Under the pieces are notes generated by a model. The model saw only the letters and a program-made list of their open reading frames with translations. It searched no databases and was not told the origin of the DNA. The translations under genes and the position numbers were made by a program. A stretch of 64,000 nucleotides of DNA from an uncultured Bacillota bacterium. Its GTDB lineage: Bacteria > Bacillota_I > Bacilli_A > RF39 > UBA660. Positions 1 through 7,976 of this stretch are shown here, piece by piece. The stretch's first letter is position 1. The number at the start of each line of letters is the position of its first letter. The stretch spans positions 1,699 to 65,698 of the forward strand of contig CAJMGO010000007.1 of assembly GCA_905212975.1 (NCBI GenBank), in the 5' to 3' direction.

Positions 1-2040
1 TTAAAGATTATATTACTGTTTAGTTTTATACTAAGTATAGTTATTTTATTTTTTAGGATTAAAAATGATTCAGTAGAGGAAAGCAATATTACTAGTATAG
101 ATGGTATAGTAAAAGAATATAGCGTTGATGGAGATAAATTAAATATTATTATAGATAATTATAAAGTTATTTATTATTTTAAGAGTGAAAAAGAACTGAA
201 TGATTTTAATATATCATATGGGGATAAAATTAAATTTATAGGTAATTCTTATATACCTAAAAATAATACAAATTTTAATATGTTTAATTATAGGTTATAT
301 TTAAAGAGTAAAAAGATCAATTATATTTTTAATGCAGACAAATATACTGTTATAAAACATAATAAAAATATATTTTATAAAATAAAACAATCTATAAAAG
401 ATAGAATAGAGAGAAATAATAGTAGTATTTATTTAAAATTATTTTTACTTGGAAATAAAGAAGAATTAGATTATAATATAAGCTCTACATATTCAAATAA
501 TGGAATCAGTCATTTATTTGCTGTATCTGGTATGCATATATCTTTACTTACACTTATAATTTATTTAATACTTAATAAATTTATAAAAAATAAAATACTA
601 AATAATATTATAGTATCTATATTTTTAGTATTTTTTTCATTTTTAACTTCTTTTTCTTCTTCTGTATTAAGAGCAGTAATGTTATTTATTTTGTGCAAAA
701 TATTTAAAAGAATCAAAACTCAATATATACTTTTGATTATATTTATGTCACTTATTTTGTATAATCCGTTTTATATTTATGATATAGGCTTTTTATATAG
801 TTTTATTATAACTTTTGGTTTAATTATTTTTTCAGATAAAATAAATGGTAAAAATTATTTTATAAAAGTTTTTAAAACATCTTTAATTTCATTTTTATTA
901 GGTATACCAATATCTATATTAAATTTTCATGAAATAAACTTAATTAGTCCAATATTAAATATTATCTTTGTTCCATTTATTTCTTTTATAATATTTCCTC
1001 TTTCTATTATTACATTTGTATTTCCAACCTTATCTTGTATATTTAATTTTTTTATAAATATACTTGAAGGATTATCAATTTTTTTTAATAATATAACTTA
1101 TTTTAAATTAATACTTAAACATGTGAGCTTATTTTATATATTTTTATATTATTTTGTTATAACATTTATATTGTATAAAAATAAAGTAAAGTATTATGTT
1201 TTGTTTTTATTTATTTTGATTATTCATTCAAATATAAATTATATAAATAATAACTTTTATCTAACTATGTTAGATGTTGGACAAGGGGATTCTATTCTTA
1301 TTGAATTACCACATAATTCTTTAAATATATTGATTGATACAGGAGGTAAGTTTAAATATAATAATGACGTATGGAAAGTAAAAAAGAAAGAATATTCAAT
1401 TGCTTCATCTATTACAATCCCTTATTTAAAATCAAGAGGTATTAAAAAAATAGATTATTTAATACTTACTCATGGGGACTATGACCATATGGGAGAAGCA
1501 ATTAACTTAGTTAATAATTTTAAAATAGAGAGTGTAATATTTAATTGTGGAGAGTTAAATGATTTAGAGAAAAAATTAACTAAAGTATTGAATCAAAAAA
1601 ACATAAAACATGAAATGTGTATTAATAATATAAAAAAGGATAACTATAATTTAGAATTTTTAAATACAAGAATTTATGGTAATGAAAATGATAGTAGTAG
1701 TGTTATTTATACAGAACTTAATGGTTATAAATTTATGTTTATGGGAGATGCTGGGGTAGAAAGAGAAAAAGATATTCTAGATAAATATAATTTATCAGAT
1801 ATTGATGTTTTAAAAGTAGGACATCATGGATCTAATACAAGTAGTAGTGAGAATTTTATAAAGAATATTAGTCCTAAATATAGTTTAATATCTGTTGGAG
1901 AAAACAATAGATATGGACATCCAAAAGATAGTGTTTTAAATATATTAAGAAATAGTAAAATTTATAGAACAGATCAAGATGGTAGTATCATGTTTAAGAT
2001 TAGGAATAATAAATTAAAAATAAAGACTTGCAATCCATAG
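1..2040 (+). CDS. comEC: DNA internalization competence protein ComEC/Rec2 (5' partial; open from window edge)
   Basis: Frame 1 is open from nt 1 to the stop at 2040. Polytopic membrane region with SHLFAVSGMHIS. C-terminal metallo-beta-lactamase fold with HGDYDHMGE and VGHHGS motifs. Confidence 0.88.
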   Translation, partial: LKIILLFSFILSIVILFFRIKNDSVEESNITSIDGIVKEYSVDGDKLNIIIDNYKVIYYFKSEKELNDFNISYGDKIKFIGNSYIPKNNTNFNMFNYRLYLKSKKINYIFNADKYTVIKHNKNIFYKIKQSIKDRIERNNSSIYLKLFLLGNKEELDYNISSTYSNNGISHLFAVSGMHISLLTLIIYLILNKFIKNKILNNIIVSIFLVFFSFLTSFSSSVLRAVMLFILCKIFKRIKTQYILLIIFMSLILYNPFYIYDIGFLYSFIITFGLIIFSDKINGKNYFIKVFKTSLISFLLGIPISILNFHEINLISPILNIIFVPFISFIIFPLSIITFVFPTLSCIFNFFINILEGLSIFFNNITYFKLILKHVSLFYIFLYYFVITFILYKNKVKYYVLFLFILIIHSNINYINNNFYLTMLDVGQGDSILIELPHNSLNILIDTGGKFKYNNDVWKVKKKEYSIASSITIPYLKSRGIKKIDYLILTHGDYDHMGEAINLVNNFKIESVIFNCGELNDLEKKLTKVLNQKNIKHEMCINNIKKDNYNLEFLNTRIYGNENDSSSVIYTELNGYKFMFMGDAGVEREKDILDKYNLSDIDVLKVGHHGSNTSSSENFIKNISPKYSLISVGENNRYGHPKDSVLNILRNSKIYRTDQDGSIMFKIRNNKLKIKTCNP

Positions 2041-2056
2041 AAAGGAAGCTGATAAA

Positions 2057-2875
2057 ATGAATGAAATAAAAGAATATACAACAAAATTATTTGAAGATAT
2101 AAAACATATAGATGAACAAGATAATGAATATTGGTTAGCAAGAGAATTACAAAAAGTTTTAAGATATAATCAGTGGCGAAGTATAAATGATTTAATTGAA
2201 AGAGCTAAAGTTGCTTGTAAAGAAAGTAATAATAACGAAGATGATCATTTTGCGTTACAACGCAAAATGATAAAATTAGCAAAAGGTGCAACAAGAAAAG
2301 TTATAGATTATAAATTATCTAGATATGCATGTTATTTAATAGTAATGAATGGTAATCCTAGGAAAGACATTATAGCTTTAGGACAAACATATTTTGCCAT
2401 TCAAACAAGAAAGCAGGAATTATCAGAAAAAGAGTATAATAATCTTACTGAAGATGAGAAAAGACTATATCGAAGAAATCAAGCAAGAAAAGGTAATTAT
2501 AATTTAAATCAAACAGCAGTTAATAGTGGAGTAAAGGATTTGGCTAGATTTCATAATGCAGGATATAAAGGACTGTATAATGGAGAAACTGCAGATGATA
2601 TATTTAAAAGAAAGAAACTAAGATATAGAGAAGATATACTAGACAATATGGGTAGTGAAGAACTAGCTGATAATATATTCAGGATTGCTCAAACAGATGC
2701 CAAATTAAAAAGAGATAATGTAGATAATGAATATACGGCTAATAGTGTTCACTATGAAATAGGCAAGAAAGTAAGAAAGATAATTGAAGACATGGGTGGA
2801 ATCATGCCAGAAAATTTACCAATTCCAGATAAAAGTTTAAAAGAATTAGAAAAAGAAACTAAAAATAATAAGTGA
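2057..2875 (+). CDS. DinD-family protein (DNA-damage-inducible protein D-like)
   Basis: 272 aa. Motifs LSRYACYL, GQTYFAIQTRKQEL, DEKRL, NMGSEELADNIFR, TDAKLKRD and GGIMPENLPIPD match enterobacterial DinD as I recall it. An RBS lies 8 nt upstream. Confidence 0.6.
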   Translation: MNEIKEYTTKLFEDIKHIDEQDNEYWLARELQKVLRYNQWRSINDLIERAKVACKESNNNEDDHFALQRKMIKLAKGATRKVIDYKLSRYACYLIVMNGNPRKDIIALGQTYFAIQTRKQELSEKEYNNLTEDEKRLYRRNQARKGNYNLNQTAVNSGVKDLARFHNAGYKGLYNGETADDIFKRKKLRYREDILDNMGSEELADNIFRIAQTDAKLKRDNVDNEYTANSVHYEIGKKVRKIIEDMGGIMPENLPIPDKSLKELEKETKNNK

Positions 2876-2954
2876 AACATTATATAATTAATATGGCAAT
2901 AAACAGTTGTTAAATTAGCTGCTTTTCTTTGCTTAAATTCTTATACATAAACGT

Positions 2955-3530
2955 ATGCTACCACATGGTGATTATGATTATATTGGCGAGGCTGTAAATC
3001 TTTTTAATATTTTGAAAGTTAAAAAAGTAGTCTTTAACTGTGGGGAGTTTAATACTTTAGAATCTAGTTTAATAAAAGTTTTAGAAGCAAAAAAATTTCA
3101 TATCAGTCATGTATTAATAAACTTGGTATTGATAACTACCAATTAAACTTTTTAAATGCAAAAGTATTTTGTGATGAAAATAATAATAGTAATGTTATTT
3201 ATACAGATTTTAATGATATAAGTTTATGTTTATGGAATATGCGGGAATTGAACAAGAAAAAGATATTTTAGATAAGTATAACTTAGCAAATATTGAAGTA
3301 TTAAAAGTAGACATCATGGGAGTAAGACAAGTAGTAGTAAAGAGTTTATAGATGAAATAAATCCAAATTATTCCATTATTAGTGTTGGCAAAAACAACAG
3401 ATAAGGTCATCCCAATAAAGAAGTATTAAATAATTTGAGTGATTCAAAAATTTATAGAACGGATCAAGAGGGTAGTATCATGTTTAAGATTAGGAATAAT
3501 AAATTAAAAATAAAGACTTGTAGTTCGTAG
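2955..3530 (+). pseudogene. Decayed duplicate of the comEC 3' region (copy A): HGDYDYIGEAVNLF ... YRTDQEGSIMFKIRNNKLKIKTCSS, with several frameshifts and stops
   Basis: About 70-75% amino-acid identity to ComEC residues about 395-586 when read across three frames. Nt 3450-3530 are nearly identical to 1960-2040. ORF-track entries 2955..3146(+) and 3210..3410(-) are fragments or artefacts of this. Confidence 0.8.
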
Positions 3531-3535
3531 AAAAA

Positions 3536-3554
3536 GTGTCGCAAAATGCGACAC
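3536..3554. repeat. Perfect GC-rich inverted repeat GTGTCGCA-aaa-TGCGACAC at the module-1 junction
   Basis: Read directly. The 8-bp arms are unusual in a 26% GC context. It sits immediately after the comEC-copy stop (3528-3530). Confidence 0.7.
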
Positions 3555-3574
3555 AATTAAGAAAGAAGTTAGAT

Positions 3575-4483
3575 ATGAATTATTATGATCAAATAAAAGG
3601 ATTATTAATAAGCAACGAAGTATATAAGAAAGTAAAGGATTATAGTAAGAACAAGAGTGATGTTGAAACATATTATAATGTTGGAAAGTTAATTATTGAA
3701 GCCCAAGGTGGAGAAAAAAGAGCTAAATATGGCGATGGTTTAATAAAAGAATATTCACAAAGATTAATAATAGAATTAAATGATAAAAAATATAGTTATA
3801 GAAATCTTATGAATATGAGAAAATTTTATTTGTTATTTAGAGATAAAAAAGTGAACGCGCTGCGTTCACAATTGAGTTGGAGCCATTATCGTGAATTACT
3901 ATCAATTAAAAATTTTGATGAAATAATATATTATATAAATTTAGCTATATCAAATAGTCTTGGATATAGAGAGTTAGCAACAAGAATAAAGAATAATGAA
4001 TATAAAAGACTACCAATTGAAACTAAAAATAAATTGATTCTTGATGATAAACTTGAAGTAAAAGATTTGGTGCCAAATCCTATACTAATTAGAAATAAAA
4101 ATAATATTGAAATAGTTACTGAGAAAGCATTACATAATTTAATATTAGAAGATATTGAATCATTTATGAAAGACCTTGGGAATTCATTTAGTTTTATTGG
4201 TAGCAAATATAAAATCAAAATAGGTGACAGAAATCACTATATTGATTTATTGCTTTTCAATATAAAATACAATTGTTATGTAGTAGTTGAATTAAAAGTA
4301 ACAGAGTTTAAGGTAGAATATATTGCGCAAGTTCAAAAATATATGAATTATATAGATAAAAATGTAAAAGAAATAAGTAATAATTCTACTATTGGAATAT
4401 TAATATGTAAGAGAGAAAATAAATTTGTTATAGAATATTGTTCAGATGAAAGAATTGCTGTTAGAGAATATGAATTAGTGTGA
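3575..4483 (+). CDS. DUF1016 / YhcG-like PD-(D/E)xK nuclease family protein (alternative GTG start at 3536)
   Basis: The LSWSHYRELL motif is typical of the DUF1016 N-domain. The C-terminal IDLLLFN...CYVVVELK is a D...E-x-K nuclease core. The MNYY start matches the paralogous remnant at 5525. Confidence 0.75.
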   Translation: MNYYDQIKGLLISNEVYKKVKDYSKNKSDVETYYNVGKLIIEAQGGEKRAKYGDGLIKEYSQRLIIELNDKKYSYRNLMNMRKFYLLFRDKKVNALRSQLSWSHYRELLSIKNFDEIIYYINLAISNSLGYRELATRIKNNEYKRLPIETKNKLILDDKLEVKDLVPNPILIRNKNNIEIVTEKALHNLILEDIESFMKDLGNSFSFIGSKYKIKIGDRNHYIDLLLFNIKYNCYVVVELKVTEFKVEYIAQVQKYMNYIDKNVKEISNNSTIGILICKRENKFVIEYCSDERIAVREYELV

Positions 4484-4489
4484 TATAAT
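4481..4489 (+). promoter_or_regulatory. Extended -10 promoter TGaTATAAT overlapping the yhcG-like stop (GTGTGATATAAT), facing the cargo gene
   Basis: The identical 12-mer is found at 5880-5891 and 6932-6943 in the same relative position. RBS AGGTGG and an ATG at 4515 follow at the appropriate distance. Confidence 0.55.
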
Positions 4490-4514
4490 ATTAATTAGTT
4501 TGTAGGTGGTTTTG

Positions 4515-4991
4515 ATGATTATTAAAGGAACAAGTTGTTATGCAAGTGCCAAAGCCGGCAATTTAGTATCAATTACTGGTGATGGTGGAAATGCCTGGGG
4601 TTTTTATGGTAATGCATATAAGAAAATGTCTCCAAAATTATATTTATGGCAATATTATGATCGAAATACCGATAATTTATCAGAAGATGAATTAATTGAT
4701 TGGTATATAAAAGAATTTTATGATTTAAGGCTGAAAGACTTAAATCCATATGAATTAATGGATACTTTAAAACAAAAATTTGGAGAGGAAATAATATTGC
4801 TTTGTCATGAGTTGCCTGGATTAGAAATAAATAAAGAACATTTTTGCCATAGAAGATTATTAGCAGATTGGATTGAACTTGAAACGGGTATTGTAATTCC
4901 TGAATTATCAATTAATGAATCTGGTGAGATTACCCAAGAAGAAATTTATGATCTCAAACCAAGAATAAAAAAACTAATTAAAAAAGATTAA
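4515..4991 (+). CDS. Hypothetical protein, possibly DUF488-like (cargo 1)
   Basis: RBS AGGTGG lies 6 nt upstream. The C-terminal FCHRRLLADWIE resembles the conserved C-terminal motif of DUF488/YeaO proteins. The assignment is tentative. Confidence 0.5.
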   Translation: MIIKGTSCYASAKAGNLVSITGDGGNAWGFYGNAYKKMSPKLYLWQYYDRNTDNLSEDELIDWYIKEFYDLRLKDLNPYELMDTLKQKFGEEIILLCHELPGLEINKEHFCHRRLLADWIELETGIVIPELSINESGEITQEEIYDLKPRIKKLIKKD

Positions 4992-5022
4992 AGAATTATC
5001 ATAATGGTAATTCTTTTTCTTT
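4992..5022 (+). terminator. Rho-independent terminator (AGAATTATCAT-a-ATGGTAATTCT + TTTTCTTT)
   Basis: 11-bp stem with one mismatch followed by a T-run. A near-identical terminator follows cargo 2 at 6570-6598. Confidence 0.55.
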
Positions 5023-5044
5023 AGTGTTATTTGACTTACTTTTT

Positions 5045-5513
5045 GACAATCACCACATGGTGATTATGACCATATGGGTGAAGCTATTAATTTAGTTAAT
5101 AAATTAAAAAAAGATAATTATAATTTAGAGTTTTTAAATACAAAATTTATGATAATGAAAATGATAGCAGTAGTGTTATTTATTTGAACTATAATGATTA
5201 TAAGTTTTTATTTATGGGAGATGCTGGTGTAGGAAGAGAAAAAGATATTCTAGATAAATATAACTTATCAGATATTGATGTCTTAAAAGTAGGACATCAT
5301 GGTAGTAAGACAAGTAGTAGTAAAGAATTAATTAATGAAATAAAACCTAATTATTCTATAATTAGTGTTGGGAAGGACAATCGTTATGGTTATCCGAATA
5401 AAGAAGTATTAGATAATATAGAAGATTCAAAAATATATAGAACAGATCAAGTTGGTAGTATCATGTTTAAAATTAAAAATAATAAATTGAAAATAGAGAC
5501 TTGTAGTTTATAG
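5045..5513 (+). pseudogene. Decayed duplicate of the comEC 3' region (copy B): HGDYDHMGEAINLVN, then an internal deletion and a frameshift; the last 109 codons are intact (ORF 5184..5513)
   Basis: Direct alignment to ComEC 395-586. The deletion joins NLVNK to KDNYNLEFLN. The tail reads YKFLFMGDAGVGREKDILDKYNLSDIDVLKVGHHGSKTSSS... Confidence 0.8.
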
Positions 5514-5524
5514 GAAGGAGTAAT

Positions 5525-5885
5525 ATGAACTATTATAATGAAATTAAAAATGAATTAATAAATAATGAAATAAATAGAAAAGTTAAAAGTTATTCAATTA
5601 ATAAAAGTGATTTAAATACTTACTATAATGTCGGTAAGTTATTACTAGCTGTGGGTAATCAATATGGAGAAAGTATTATTAAAGAGTATTCAATTAAGAG
5701 AAAGAATAAAATCTAATGAATATGAAAGGCTTCCGGAATCTACTAAAAATAAATCAGTAGAACAAAAAGAATCCGATATAGTTGATTTTATCAAGAATCC
5801 AATTTTGATTAAGAATGATAATAAATATGTAATTAAATATTGCTCTGATGAGAGAATAATTGCTAGAAAATATGAATTGGTGTGA
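5525..5885 (+). pseudogene. Truncated or internally deleted yhcG-like (DUF1016) gene: N-terminal 60 aa plus C-terminal about 70 aa in different frames
   Basis: MNYYNEIKNELINNE...YYNVGKLL matches the N-terminus of the 3575-4483 protein. The tail ...NPILIKNDNKYVIKYCSDERIIARKYELV matches its C-terminus. Confidence 0.75.
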
Positions 5886-5891
5886 TATAAT
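5883..5891 (+). promoter_or_regulatory. Extended -10 promoter (TGTGATATAAT), second copy
   Basis: Same 12-mer GTGTGATATAAT fused to the ...YELV stop. GGAG RBS and an ATG at 5916 lie downstream. Confidence 0.5.
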
Positions 5892-5915
5892 AGATATAGA
5901 TTTGGAGATGATTAG

Positions 5916-6563
5916 ATGAAAATCGAACTTAGTAATTTTACTATTGAATATGACAAAGAGATTGATTATATGTCAAATATAATTTCAACATTAGAAAACA
6001 ATACCATTGAAATTTTAGAATTTTTTGAACTTGAAAAACTTTCTCAAAAAAAGAAAGTAGTGATTTTTACTGATAGAGAAAAATATAAGAAACATTTGTT
6101 GCCATTTGTAAAAGAATTTAAAGAATGGATGTGTGCAGATACATACGATGGTAATATTAACTTGTTAGAAATGTCTGAAGCAAGAAAATCTAAAGAACAT
6201 GAAGATATGGATATGGATGAATTTATAAAATGCATACTACATGAGTTTGTGCATTCATGTCAGCAAGAGTGGAATGAAAATTCTGAGGGTGTTAGTTGGT
6301 ATTGGGAAGCATTGGCAACTAATTTAAGTAATCAAGATTATTCAACAGTTAGTTTAGAAGATTGTGATTTTGAAAAATTAAAAAGTGATTTTAATGGAAC
6401 AGAAAACGGGTATAGTTACTCATATACTTTAGGAAAATACATGCTAGAAAATTATTCTAAAGAAAAATTGTTAGAATACGTTAAGAATCCAGATTTGTTA
6501 AAGCAAGATGCAAATCACATATTTGAAACAGTCAAACAATCACAAAAAAATAAAAAATTATAG
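5916..6563 (+). CDS. Hypothetical HExxH (zincin-like) protein (cargo 2)
   Basis: 215 aa with an HEFVH motif (ILHEFVHSCQQEW) and a downstream Glu (WYWEALA). RBS GGAG. I recognise no other domain. Confidence 0.55.
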   Translation: MKIELSNFTIEYDKEIDYMSNIISTLENNTIEILEFFELEKLSQKKKVVIFTDREKYKKHLLPFVKEFKEWMCADTYDGNINLLEMSEARKSKEHEDMDMDEFIKCILHEFVHSCQQEWNENSEGVSWYWEALATNLSNQDYSTVSLEDCDFEKLKSDFNGTENGYSYSYTLGKYMLENYSKEKLLEYVKNPDLLKQDANHIFETVKQSQKNKKL

Positions 6564-6569
6564 AAATAG

Positions 6570-6598
6570 GAATTATCAATTTGATAGTTCTTTTTATT
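6570..6598 (+). terminator. Rho-independent terminator (GAATTATCAA-t-TTGATAGTTC + TTTTTATT)
   Basis: Stem-loop plus T-run immediately after the stop at 6563. It is paralogous to the 4992-5022 terminator. Confidence 0.5.
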
Positions 6599-6624
6599 CG
6601 ACTTACTTTTTGACAACAACTACA

Positions 6625-6937
6625 TTGGACTATGATCATATGGGTGAAGCTATTAATTTAGTTAATAATTTTAAAATAGAGAGTGTAATATTTAATTGTG
6701 GAGAGTTAAATGATTTAGAAAAAATTAACTAAAGTATTGAATCAAAAAAACATAAAACATGAAATATGTATTAATAATATAAAAGAAGATAACTATAATT
6801 TAGAATTTTTAAATACAAAAATTTATGACAATGAAAATGATACAGTTAGAATTATTATTTGTAAATATAATAATGAGTATGTTATTAAATATTATTCGGA
6901 TGATAGAATAATCGTTAGAGAATATGAGTTAGTGTGA
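6625..6937 (+). pseudogene. Chimeric remnant: comEC 3' copy C (DYDHMGEAINLVNNFKIESVIFNCGELNDLEK...NENDT) fused to the last about 25 codons of a yhcG-like gene (...YVIKYYSDDRIIVREYELV)
   Basis: The first 150 nt are near-identical to comEC 1480-1570 apart from a 1-nt loss in an A-run. ORFs 6508..6732 and 6737..6937 are fragments of it. Confidence 0.75.
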
Positions 6938-6943
6938 TATAAT
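6935..6943 (+). promoter_or_regulatory. Extended -10 promoter (TGTGATATAAT), third copy
   Basis: Same 12-mer. The first ATGs of cargo 3 (6948 to 6963) lie within 5-20 nt, so the transcript may be leaderless or the start lies further downstream. Confidence 0.4.
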
Positions 6944-6947
6944 TAAA

Positions 6948-7586
6948 ATGGATGTGATGATGATGAATTTTAAACAAGAAATTAATGAATTAGAAATGTT
7001 TAATTGTTGTGATGATTTTGTTTTTTATAAAGGTGAAATTCCTATATTATTTTCTGCACCTCATACTATGAGGCAAAAAAAGGAAGATGGAAGTATAAAA
7101 TCATCTGAACCTTATACTAAAGCAATAGCATTATATTTAAATAAGTATTTTAATGTATTTTCAATTGTTAAGATTAATGATACTGGTCTTGATTCAAACC
7201 GCGATAATGATGATAATTATAAAAAAGAATTAATGAAAATAGTTAAAGAAAATAATATAAAATTAGTTATTGATCTTCACGGTGCTTCAAAAGAAAGGAA
7301 TTTTGATGTTGAATTTGGTACGTTAAATAATTTGTCAATAGATTTTTCTACGATAAAAGAGTTGGAAGATGCTTTTAAAGAAAATGGAATAAAAAATGTC
7401 TTATATAATGCACCATTTAAAGGTGGTGCGATTACTCAATATTTATATGGTATAAATGATATTGATGTAGTGCAAATAGAAATTAATGGAAAATATAGAA
7501 ATTCAGATAATATTGATTTATTAAAAAAGATTATTGATTCATTAGTAAATTTTATACATCAGTATAATACGTATATAAATAGATAA
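6948..7586 (+). CDS. Hypothetical hydrolase, possibly N-formylglutamate amidohydrolase (FGase) family-like (cargo 3)
   Basis: ILFSAPHT ... LVIDLHGASKER is reminiscent of the FGase/zinc-hydrolase HxxP...DLHS pattern. The start codon is uncertain (6948-6963). Confidence 0.45.
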   Translation: MDVMMMNFKQEINELEMFNCCDDFVFYKGEIPILFSAPHTMRQKKEDGSIKSSEPYTKAIALYLNKYFNVFSIVKINDTGLDSNRDNDDNYKKELMKIVKENNIKLVIDLHGASKERNFDVEFGTLNNLSIDFSTIKELEDAFKENGIKNVLYNAPFKGGAITQYLYGINDIDVVQIEINGKYRNSDNIDLLKKIIDSLVNFIHQYNTYINR

Positions 7587-7900
7587 TTAGGTTAGTGAAT
7601 ATGAATATTAATAGAATCTATATAGAATATTTAGAAAATAATAAATTTATAAAAAAATATAAATATAAACGCTGATAAACTATTTAAATTTATAGGAATT
7701 TTGAATTTATAGAAGATAATTTAATAATATAGAATATGATGTTATAATAAAAAAATAAAATAGTGTATTATTATGCATGTTTTTTTGTATAGTGTGTAAA
7801 CTTATAATGTATACAATAAAAAATAATTAGCATATAATATTATGTGTGTTATGAAGGGTAATATTGTTTGTACGCTACAGCAAATAGCGTTTATATAGAT

Positions 7901-7928
7901 AGAGAACAAATTTGTTCTCTTTTTTTTA
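7901..7928. terminator. Perfect 20-nt palindrome AGAGAACAAATTTGTTCTCT + T7 (terminator, possibly bidirectional)
   Basis: Read directly from the sequence. Confidence 0.55.
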
Positions 7929-7976
7929 AATTTATATTGAATAAAAAAAATTTTATGTTATAATTATTTATGTAAT

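Follow-up and report, generated by a model that had tools for sequence, protein, structure and literature searches.

Cassettes downstream of comEC in an uncultured gut bacterium were probably accreted at the attachment site of comEC-integrating phages

Why does the DNA between comEC and a tRNA-Lys gene in an uncultured gut bacterium contain further copies of the end of comEC, and how did they come to lie there? A preliminary description of this DNA, a stretch of 64,000 nt that we call the window, had offered two origins, namely tandem accretion of small integrative units, each bringing a new 3' end for comEC and none with an integrase remaining, or cassette exchange by homologous recombination. 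We consider it likely that integrase-less cassettes have piled up here at a site used for attachment by comEC-integrating phages, with comEC being rebuilt, the cassettes accreted by phage serine integrases acting in trans, and their content reshuffled by homologous recombination. All window features given below lie on the + strand.

The resident comEC, a DNA-uptake gene, is intact (1..2040; Pfam Competence and Lactamase_B). Its 5' end lies ~9 nt outside the window; gene calls in the identical contig L146 and in L153-L160 give a length of 682 aa. As the preliminary description had claimed, its last ~570 nt are present three more times (tblastn with ComEC residues 391-586; E 1e-32 to 1e-54). Copy A (2969..3530; tblastn match 2943-3521; E 1.7e-41) is a frameshifted pseudogene, which corresponds to an intact ORF of 196 aa in the conspecific L145. 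Copy B (5061..5516; match 5053-5507; E 1.5e-54) carries an internal deletion, is present undeleted in the conspecific L149, and retains its last 109 codons as an intact ORF (5184-5513). Copy C (6628..6856; match 6607-6910; E 1.1e-32) is truncated and fused to the tail of a yhcG gene within an ORF at 6737-6937. All three copies start at the same position of comEC, marked by CATGG at 1471 in the resident gene, at 2964 and 5056, and by a degenerate version at 6623-6627; this pattern gave no chance match in 100 shuffles. The increasing decay of the copies had been read as a clock, with the oldest module distal. However, decay is not monotonic: copy C, although truncated furthest, shares 83-96% DNA identity with resident comEC at 1470-1709, whereas the proximal copy A reaches only 58-88%. 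Moreover, several of the lesions are strain-level deletions that are missing in conspecifics.

Each comEC 3' end is followed by a lead gene or by remnants of one. In the proximal module this is a dinD-like gene with a Bro-N domain (2057..2875), which matches the NCBIfam DinD equivalog with 338 bits (cut-off 242) and PADLOC family PDC-S13 (1.9e-97), and which lacks the C-terminal NUDIX domain of its relatives, such as the 439-aa Bro-N+NUDIX form in L001. Module 2 is led by an intact yhcG-like gene (3575..4483) that encodes a PD-(D/E)xK nuclease with DUF1016_N and YhcG_C domains, both above the Pfam cut-offs, and matches PADLOC family PDC-S02 (6.8e-66). Downstream of copy B, tblastn and comparison with conspecifics revealed 5' and 3' remnants of yhcG (5525..5885; match 5522-5882), separated by an internal deletion that is missing in L153 and L151. 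Behind copy C, the ORF list, similarity and a motif delimit a tail of ~25 codons (6857..6943; match 6836-6934). The lead genes had thus been described correctly, as judged from domain models for the intact genes and similarity for the remnants.

The stop codon of each yhcG gene or remnant is overlapped by the motif GTGTGATATAAT, an extended -10 box (motif matches at 4478..4489, 5880..5891 and 6932-6943), which presumably serves as the cargo promoter. An extended -10-like TGnTAnAAT was found at 47 of 69 yhcG ends in metagenome arrays, in 30 of them as the exact GTGTGATATAAT. A different cargo gene follows at each of the three sites, as had been noted. Cargo 1 (4515..4991; 158 aa) shows a weak match to DUF488-N3a below the Pfam cut-off and has a copy of 98% amino-acid identity in the distant genome L106. 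Cargo 2 (5916..6563) is an ORF for a 215-aa HExxH protein without a family match in Pfam, NCBIfam or PADLOC. Cargo 3 (6963..7586; 207 aa in the gene call for L146) encodes an FGase-like hydrolase (Pfam FGase, 2.2e-8). Predicted terminator hairpins close the first two cargo modules, at 4990..5016 (fold -9.6 kcal/mol, z -4.3) and 6568..6592 (z -3.6), in agreement with the preliminary description. Its analogy to orphan arrays of polymorphic toxin loci found no support, as Pfam, NCBIfam and PADLOC named no toxin or immunity family among the window genes. Taken together, the cassettes follow the order crossover, comEC 3' end, lead gene (yhcG or dinD), optional promoter and cargo, terminator, 31-nt phage-type P half-site, crossover. 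Each cassette thus has its own spare copy of the last third of comEC, and most end in half a phage attachment site. The final half-site is missing from the distal, fourth unit: 3' of cargo 3 there is no P arm or comEC remnant, and 7587-7976 shows no comEC similarity above that of shuffles.

The crossover point lies within the CATGG at 1471-1475 of the resident gene, in an unoccupied attB (1447..1500; ...TTAATACTTACT CATGG GGACTATGACCATATGGG, encoding LILTHGDYDHMG) that was located by pattern match and corresponds to the host halves of phage attL and attR. This attB of the phage family is the comEC stretch for the metallo-beta-lactamase motif (L/I)(I/L)THG|DYDHMG, ~570 nt 5' of the stop codon; comEC from 1476 to 2040 appears to be a module-supplied 3' end. 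In phage contig L013, an imperfect palindrome lies directly beside the genes for a Resolvase+Recombinase+Zn_ribbon integrase and a CI-like repressor, and contig L162 shows the same arrangement of integrase and attP. The enzyme is a large serine integrase of 473 aa (family ~470 aa) with partial, sub-threshold matches to the NCBIfam CcrB/CcrA/CcrC models, and it adjoins the same 31 nt as junction 2 of the array (see below), which forms one half of the palindrome. The same phage was found as attL (comEC-5'...CATGG|P'-int) in at least six host backgrounds and as attR (phage-P arm-CATGG|comEC-3') in at least four. The phages of this family, temperate phages of uncultured gut and rumen Bacilli, integrate in comEC at exactly the crossover codon and split the gene. 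They were seen only in related species, in which the N-terminal part of ComEC is 34-42% identical to that of the window.

All three internal boundaries of the array carry such half-sites. Junction 1 (2938..2968), TTCTTATACATAAACGTATGCTACCACATGG, is a P half-site that departs from the type-2 consensus at 4 positions; its intact version, TTCGTATGCATAAACGTATGTCACCACATGG, occurs in L145, and related P arms in phages L161 and L128. This type-2 arm comes from a second phage type. Junction 2 (5030..5060), the type-1 half-site TTTGACTTACTTTTTGACAATCACCACATGG, agrees with phage attP at 30 of 31 positions and is the single match in the window, with none expected; the same half is present in the attP sites of L013 and L162 and in the attR sites of L163-L168. 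Junction 3 (6597..6627) is a type-1 half-site with a degenerate inner motif, TTCGACTTACTTTTTGACAACAACTACATTG, recognised by its similarity to P arms. Because attP, attL and attR forms of the site were all found, the chromosome resolves into attB within the intact comEC, followed by three attR-like junctions, behind each of which lies a displaced 3' end of comEC. Judging from sequence, the modules are bounded by attR-type sites that belong to comEC-targeting phages with large serine integrases. The junction GACTTACTTTTTGACAA described earlier is indeed shared between modules, but it is not anonymous; its identification as the P half of a phage attP is new here. These boundaries support the first of the two proposed origins.

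The same build, an intact comEC followed by one to four modules led by YhcG or DinD, recurred in 120 or more metagenome contigs from gut and rumen. Their junctions, likewise at least 120, all carry a P arm from one of ~3 families. Similarity to phage DNA ends exactly at the outer edge of the half-site, and the adjoining terminators vary between cassettes. Nearly all junctions lie within arrays 3' of an intact comEC, with L128 as the one true prophage end; some genomes (L003, L009) contain comEC-yhcG without a P arm or displaced copy. No integrase or prophage was found in the window or in any array locus, the metagenome loci included, and none of the 120 metagenome loci has the matching ends expected of a circle. 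We found no phage contig carrying a cassette, and searches of IMG/VR with the attR-junction pattern and ComEC-C gave 0 matches. Strains of the species to which the window belongs differ in module content; the expectation that cargo varies between conserved flanks was therefore borne out among conspecifics.

Several signatures place exchange at the crossover. Near-identical DinD-NUDIX modules in genomes whose comEC 5' DNA is 40-60% identical lose their identity at the second crossover point, and the DUF488 cargo of the window is 96-100% identical to that of L106 up to the P arm at 5060, where identity falls. In nine genomes, ComEC amino-acid identity rises from 0.25-0.5 to 0.7-0.9 at residue ~390-398, and synonymous codon identity is greater 3' of this step in 28 of 28 pairs. 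By these measures, the 3' third of comEC behaves as exchanged DNA. Furthermore, the array in L142 contains a hybrid P(type 2)-O-P'(type 1) site with ~20 nt of the end of an integrase gene, which reads as the footprint of attL x attR-type recombination between phage and cassette. Apart from L142, no P' arm was found in 697 kb of array loci.

Homologous recombination might have produced all of this alone, with comEC 3' ends and yhcG as portable homology for RecA-dependent exchange, duplication and deletion, and the half-sites as passive remains of one or a few ancient events. The resident comEC and its copies are mosaic in identity and show gene-conversion tracts, SNP clusters among conspecifics are confined to comEC-3', and the conspecific L155 lacks the whole cargo 2 module, with breakpoints inside a 144-nt repeat. 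In addition, the first ~200 nt 3' of the crossover are only 80-86% identical in otherwise identical modules, and the identity block shared with L106 begins inside yhcG. Because some exchange boundaries lie inside yhcG, we conclude that homologous recombination does part of the work. However, it leaves unexplained why ~3 P-arm families, each matching a different phage lineage, are conserved over exactly half-site length beside unrelated terminators at more than 100 junctions, as well as the sharp identity drops at the crossover, the ComEC conservation step at the att point and the hybrid attP-like site of L142; insertion into a naive comEC by homology alone would also require either a circular intermediate or a recipient segment present in two copies. 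Thus, exchange by homologous recombination operates here but is not the architect, and we regard it as an unlikely sole cause.

The array could also represent leftovers of successive comEC prophages decayed by deletion, as phages do integrate at this site and L142 has kept the end of an integrase gene. We consider this highly improbable: prophage decay would leave attL and a split comEC, whereas comEC is intact and P' arms are absent outside L142; phage similarity never extends beyond the 31-nt arm, the ORFs of five phage contigs gave no tblastn matches in arrays, and identical 2-kb modules occur in different species. Even less probable is homing, in which the YhcG nuclease would cut comEC alleles lacking yhcG and be copied in by break repair, carrying the comEC 3' end and cargo along. 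The nuclease gene does lie directly 3' of the comEC stop codon in many genomes, but a good part of the modules is led by DinD (among complete copies, 12 of 35 resident and 19 of 93 displaced ones), and domain searches of the DinD lead genes found only Bro-N, with NUDIX in relatives, and no nuclease domain; homing also fails to explain the phage P arms and their exact coincidence with the serine-integrase crossover site. Finally, repeat collapse or chimerism during assembly has a negligible chance, despite a related contig (L156) that is possibly a chimera, with one half like the window and the other like L001, since the copies differ enough (58-96%) for unambiguous assembly and the same order and junctions recur at 97-100% identity in at least seven independent assemblies from different cohorts, including at least six gut assemblies of the species at 97-99% and one contig 100% identical to the window over 10.2 kb.

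How might phage integrases have accreted the cassettes? An attR-type site (P-O-B'), as on a cassette circle, is no substrate for direct serine-integrase integration into attB, and because of this the route that we infer is indirect. It would use only canonical serine-integrase reactions, with the phage integrase supplied in trans, in three steps. A phage would integrate at attB beside an array; on excision, its attL would pair with a distal attR, so that the departing phage takes a cassette along; in the next host, attL would pair with the proximal, internal attR, whereby the phage exits and the cassette stays. The last step would rebuild comEC with the 3' end of the cassette, and the former 3' end of the host gene would come to lie further downstream. 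Modules and cargo would afterwards be shuffled, deleted and homogenised through homologous recombination between the repeats and through gene conversion.

The preliminary description knew of no system with this architecture. Close precedents exist in SCC/psiSCC arrays at rlmH, the Dehalococcoides ssrA islands and CIME accretion, and comparison with them points to the comEC array as a variant of tandem accretion of mobile cassettes, which is already known. Staphylococcal SCC/SCCmec composite islands and tandem SCC-like defence cassettes at rlmH likewise have their site for a large serine recombinase within the 3' end of a conserved gene, form tandem cassettes of which many lack their own recombinase, are mobilised in trans, as we infer for the comEC cassettes, and are rich in anti-phage genes (PMC11470126). 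In contrast, the comEC site lies ~570 nt from the gene end, so that each cassette carries a third of comEC (~190 codons) where SCC carries ~15-20 bp; the recombinase comes from temperate phages that themselves split the target gene, and the junctions are strictly attR-type, phage half plus gene half. The Dehalococcoides ssrA islands also stand in tandem behind a gene present in one copy. Repeats of the 3' end of this gene bound the islands, each repeat with a conserved non-target motif just upstream, and the integrase is a CcrB-like serine recombinase; 15 of them lack an integration module and were read as cis-mobilisable (PMC3146451). They differ in being large (tens of kb), mostly with their own integrase, in a repeat that is 20 bp of an RNA gene, and in involving no phage. 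In streptococcal CIME accretion with ICEs/IMEs and in phage-ICE tandems, integrase-less att-flanked elements similarly pile up beside the 3' end of a target gene, can be mobilised by the integrase of a neighbouring element (excision of a composite can be driven by a phage integrase), and have homologous recombination as a back-up route (PMC5704250, PMC13651849). These systems, however, mostly employ tyrosine recombinases, and the core repeats on their two sides are identical. CIMEs are decayed ICEs, whereas the comEC units, of 1.5-2 kb, give the impression of minimal cassettes built for the purpose. As for the phages, serine recombinases are also encoded by Phi1207.3/Phi10394.4, found in comEC of S. 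pyogenes (PMC4260502), and by the Listeria prophage in comK, where the enzyme is a serine integrase (PMC7397523). These phages likewise inactivate a competence gene by integrating within it, and their excision restores the gene (PMC4260502, PMC7397523). Neither cassette arrays nor replacement gene ends have been described for these two sites, and the streptococcal site is a GA dinucleotide elsewhere in comEC (PMC4260502).

Two of the three P arms in the window are degenerate, and its array may therefore now be immobile. PADLOC counts the families of both lead genes, PDC-S02 and PDC-S13, among its candidate anti-phage families; the array therefore probably has a second role, as a small and exchangeable island of defence genes.

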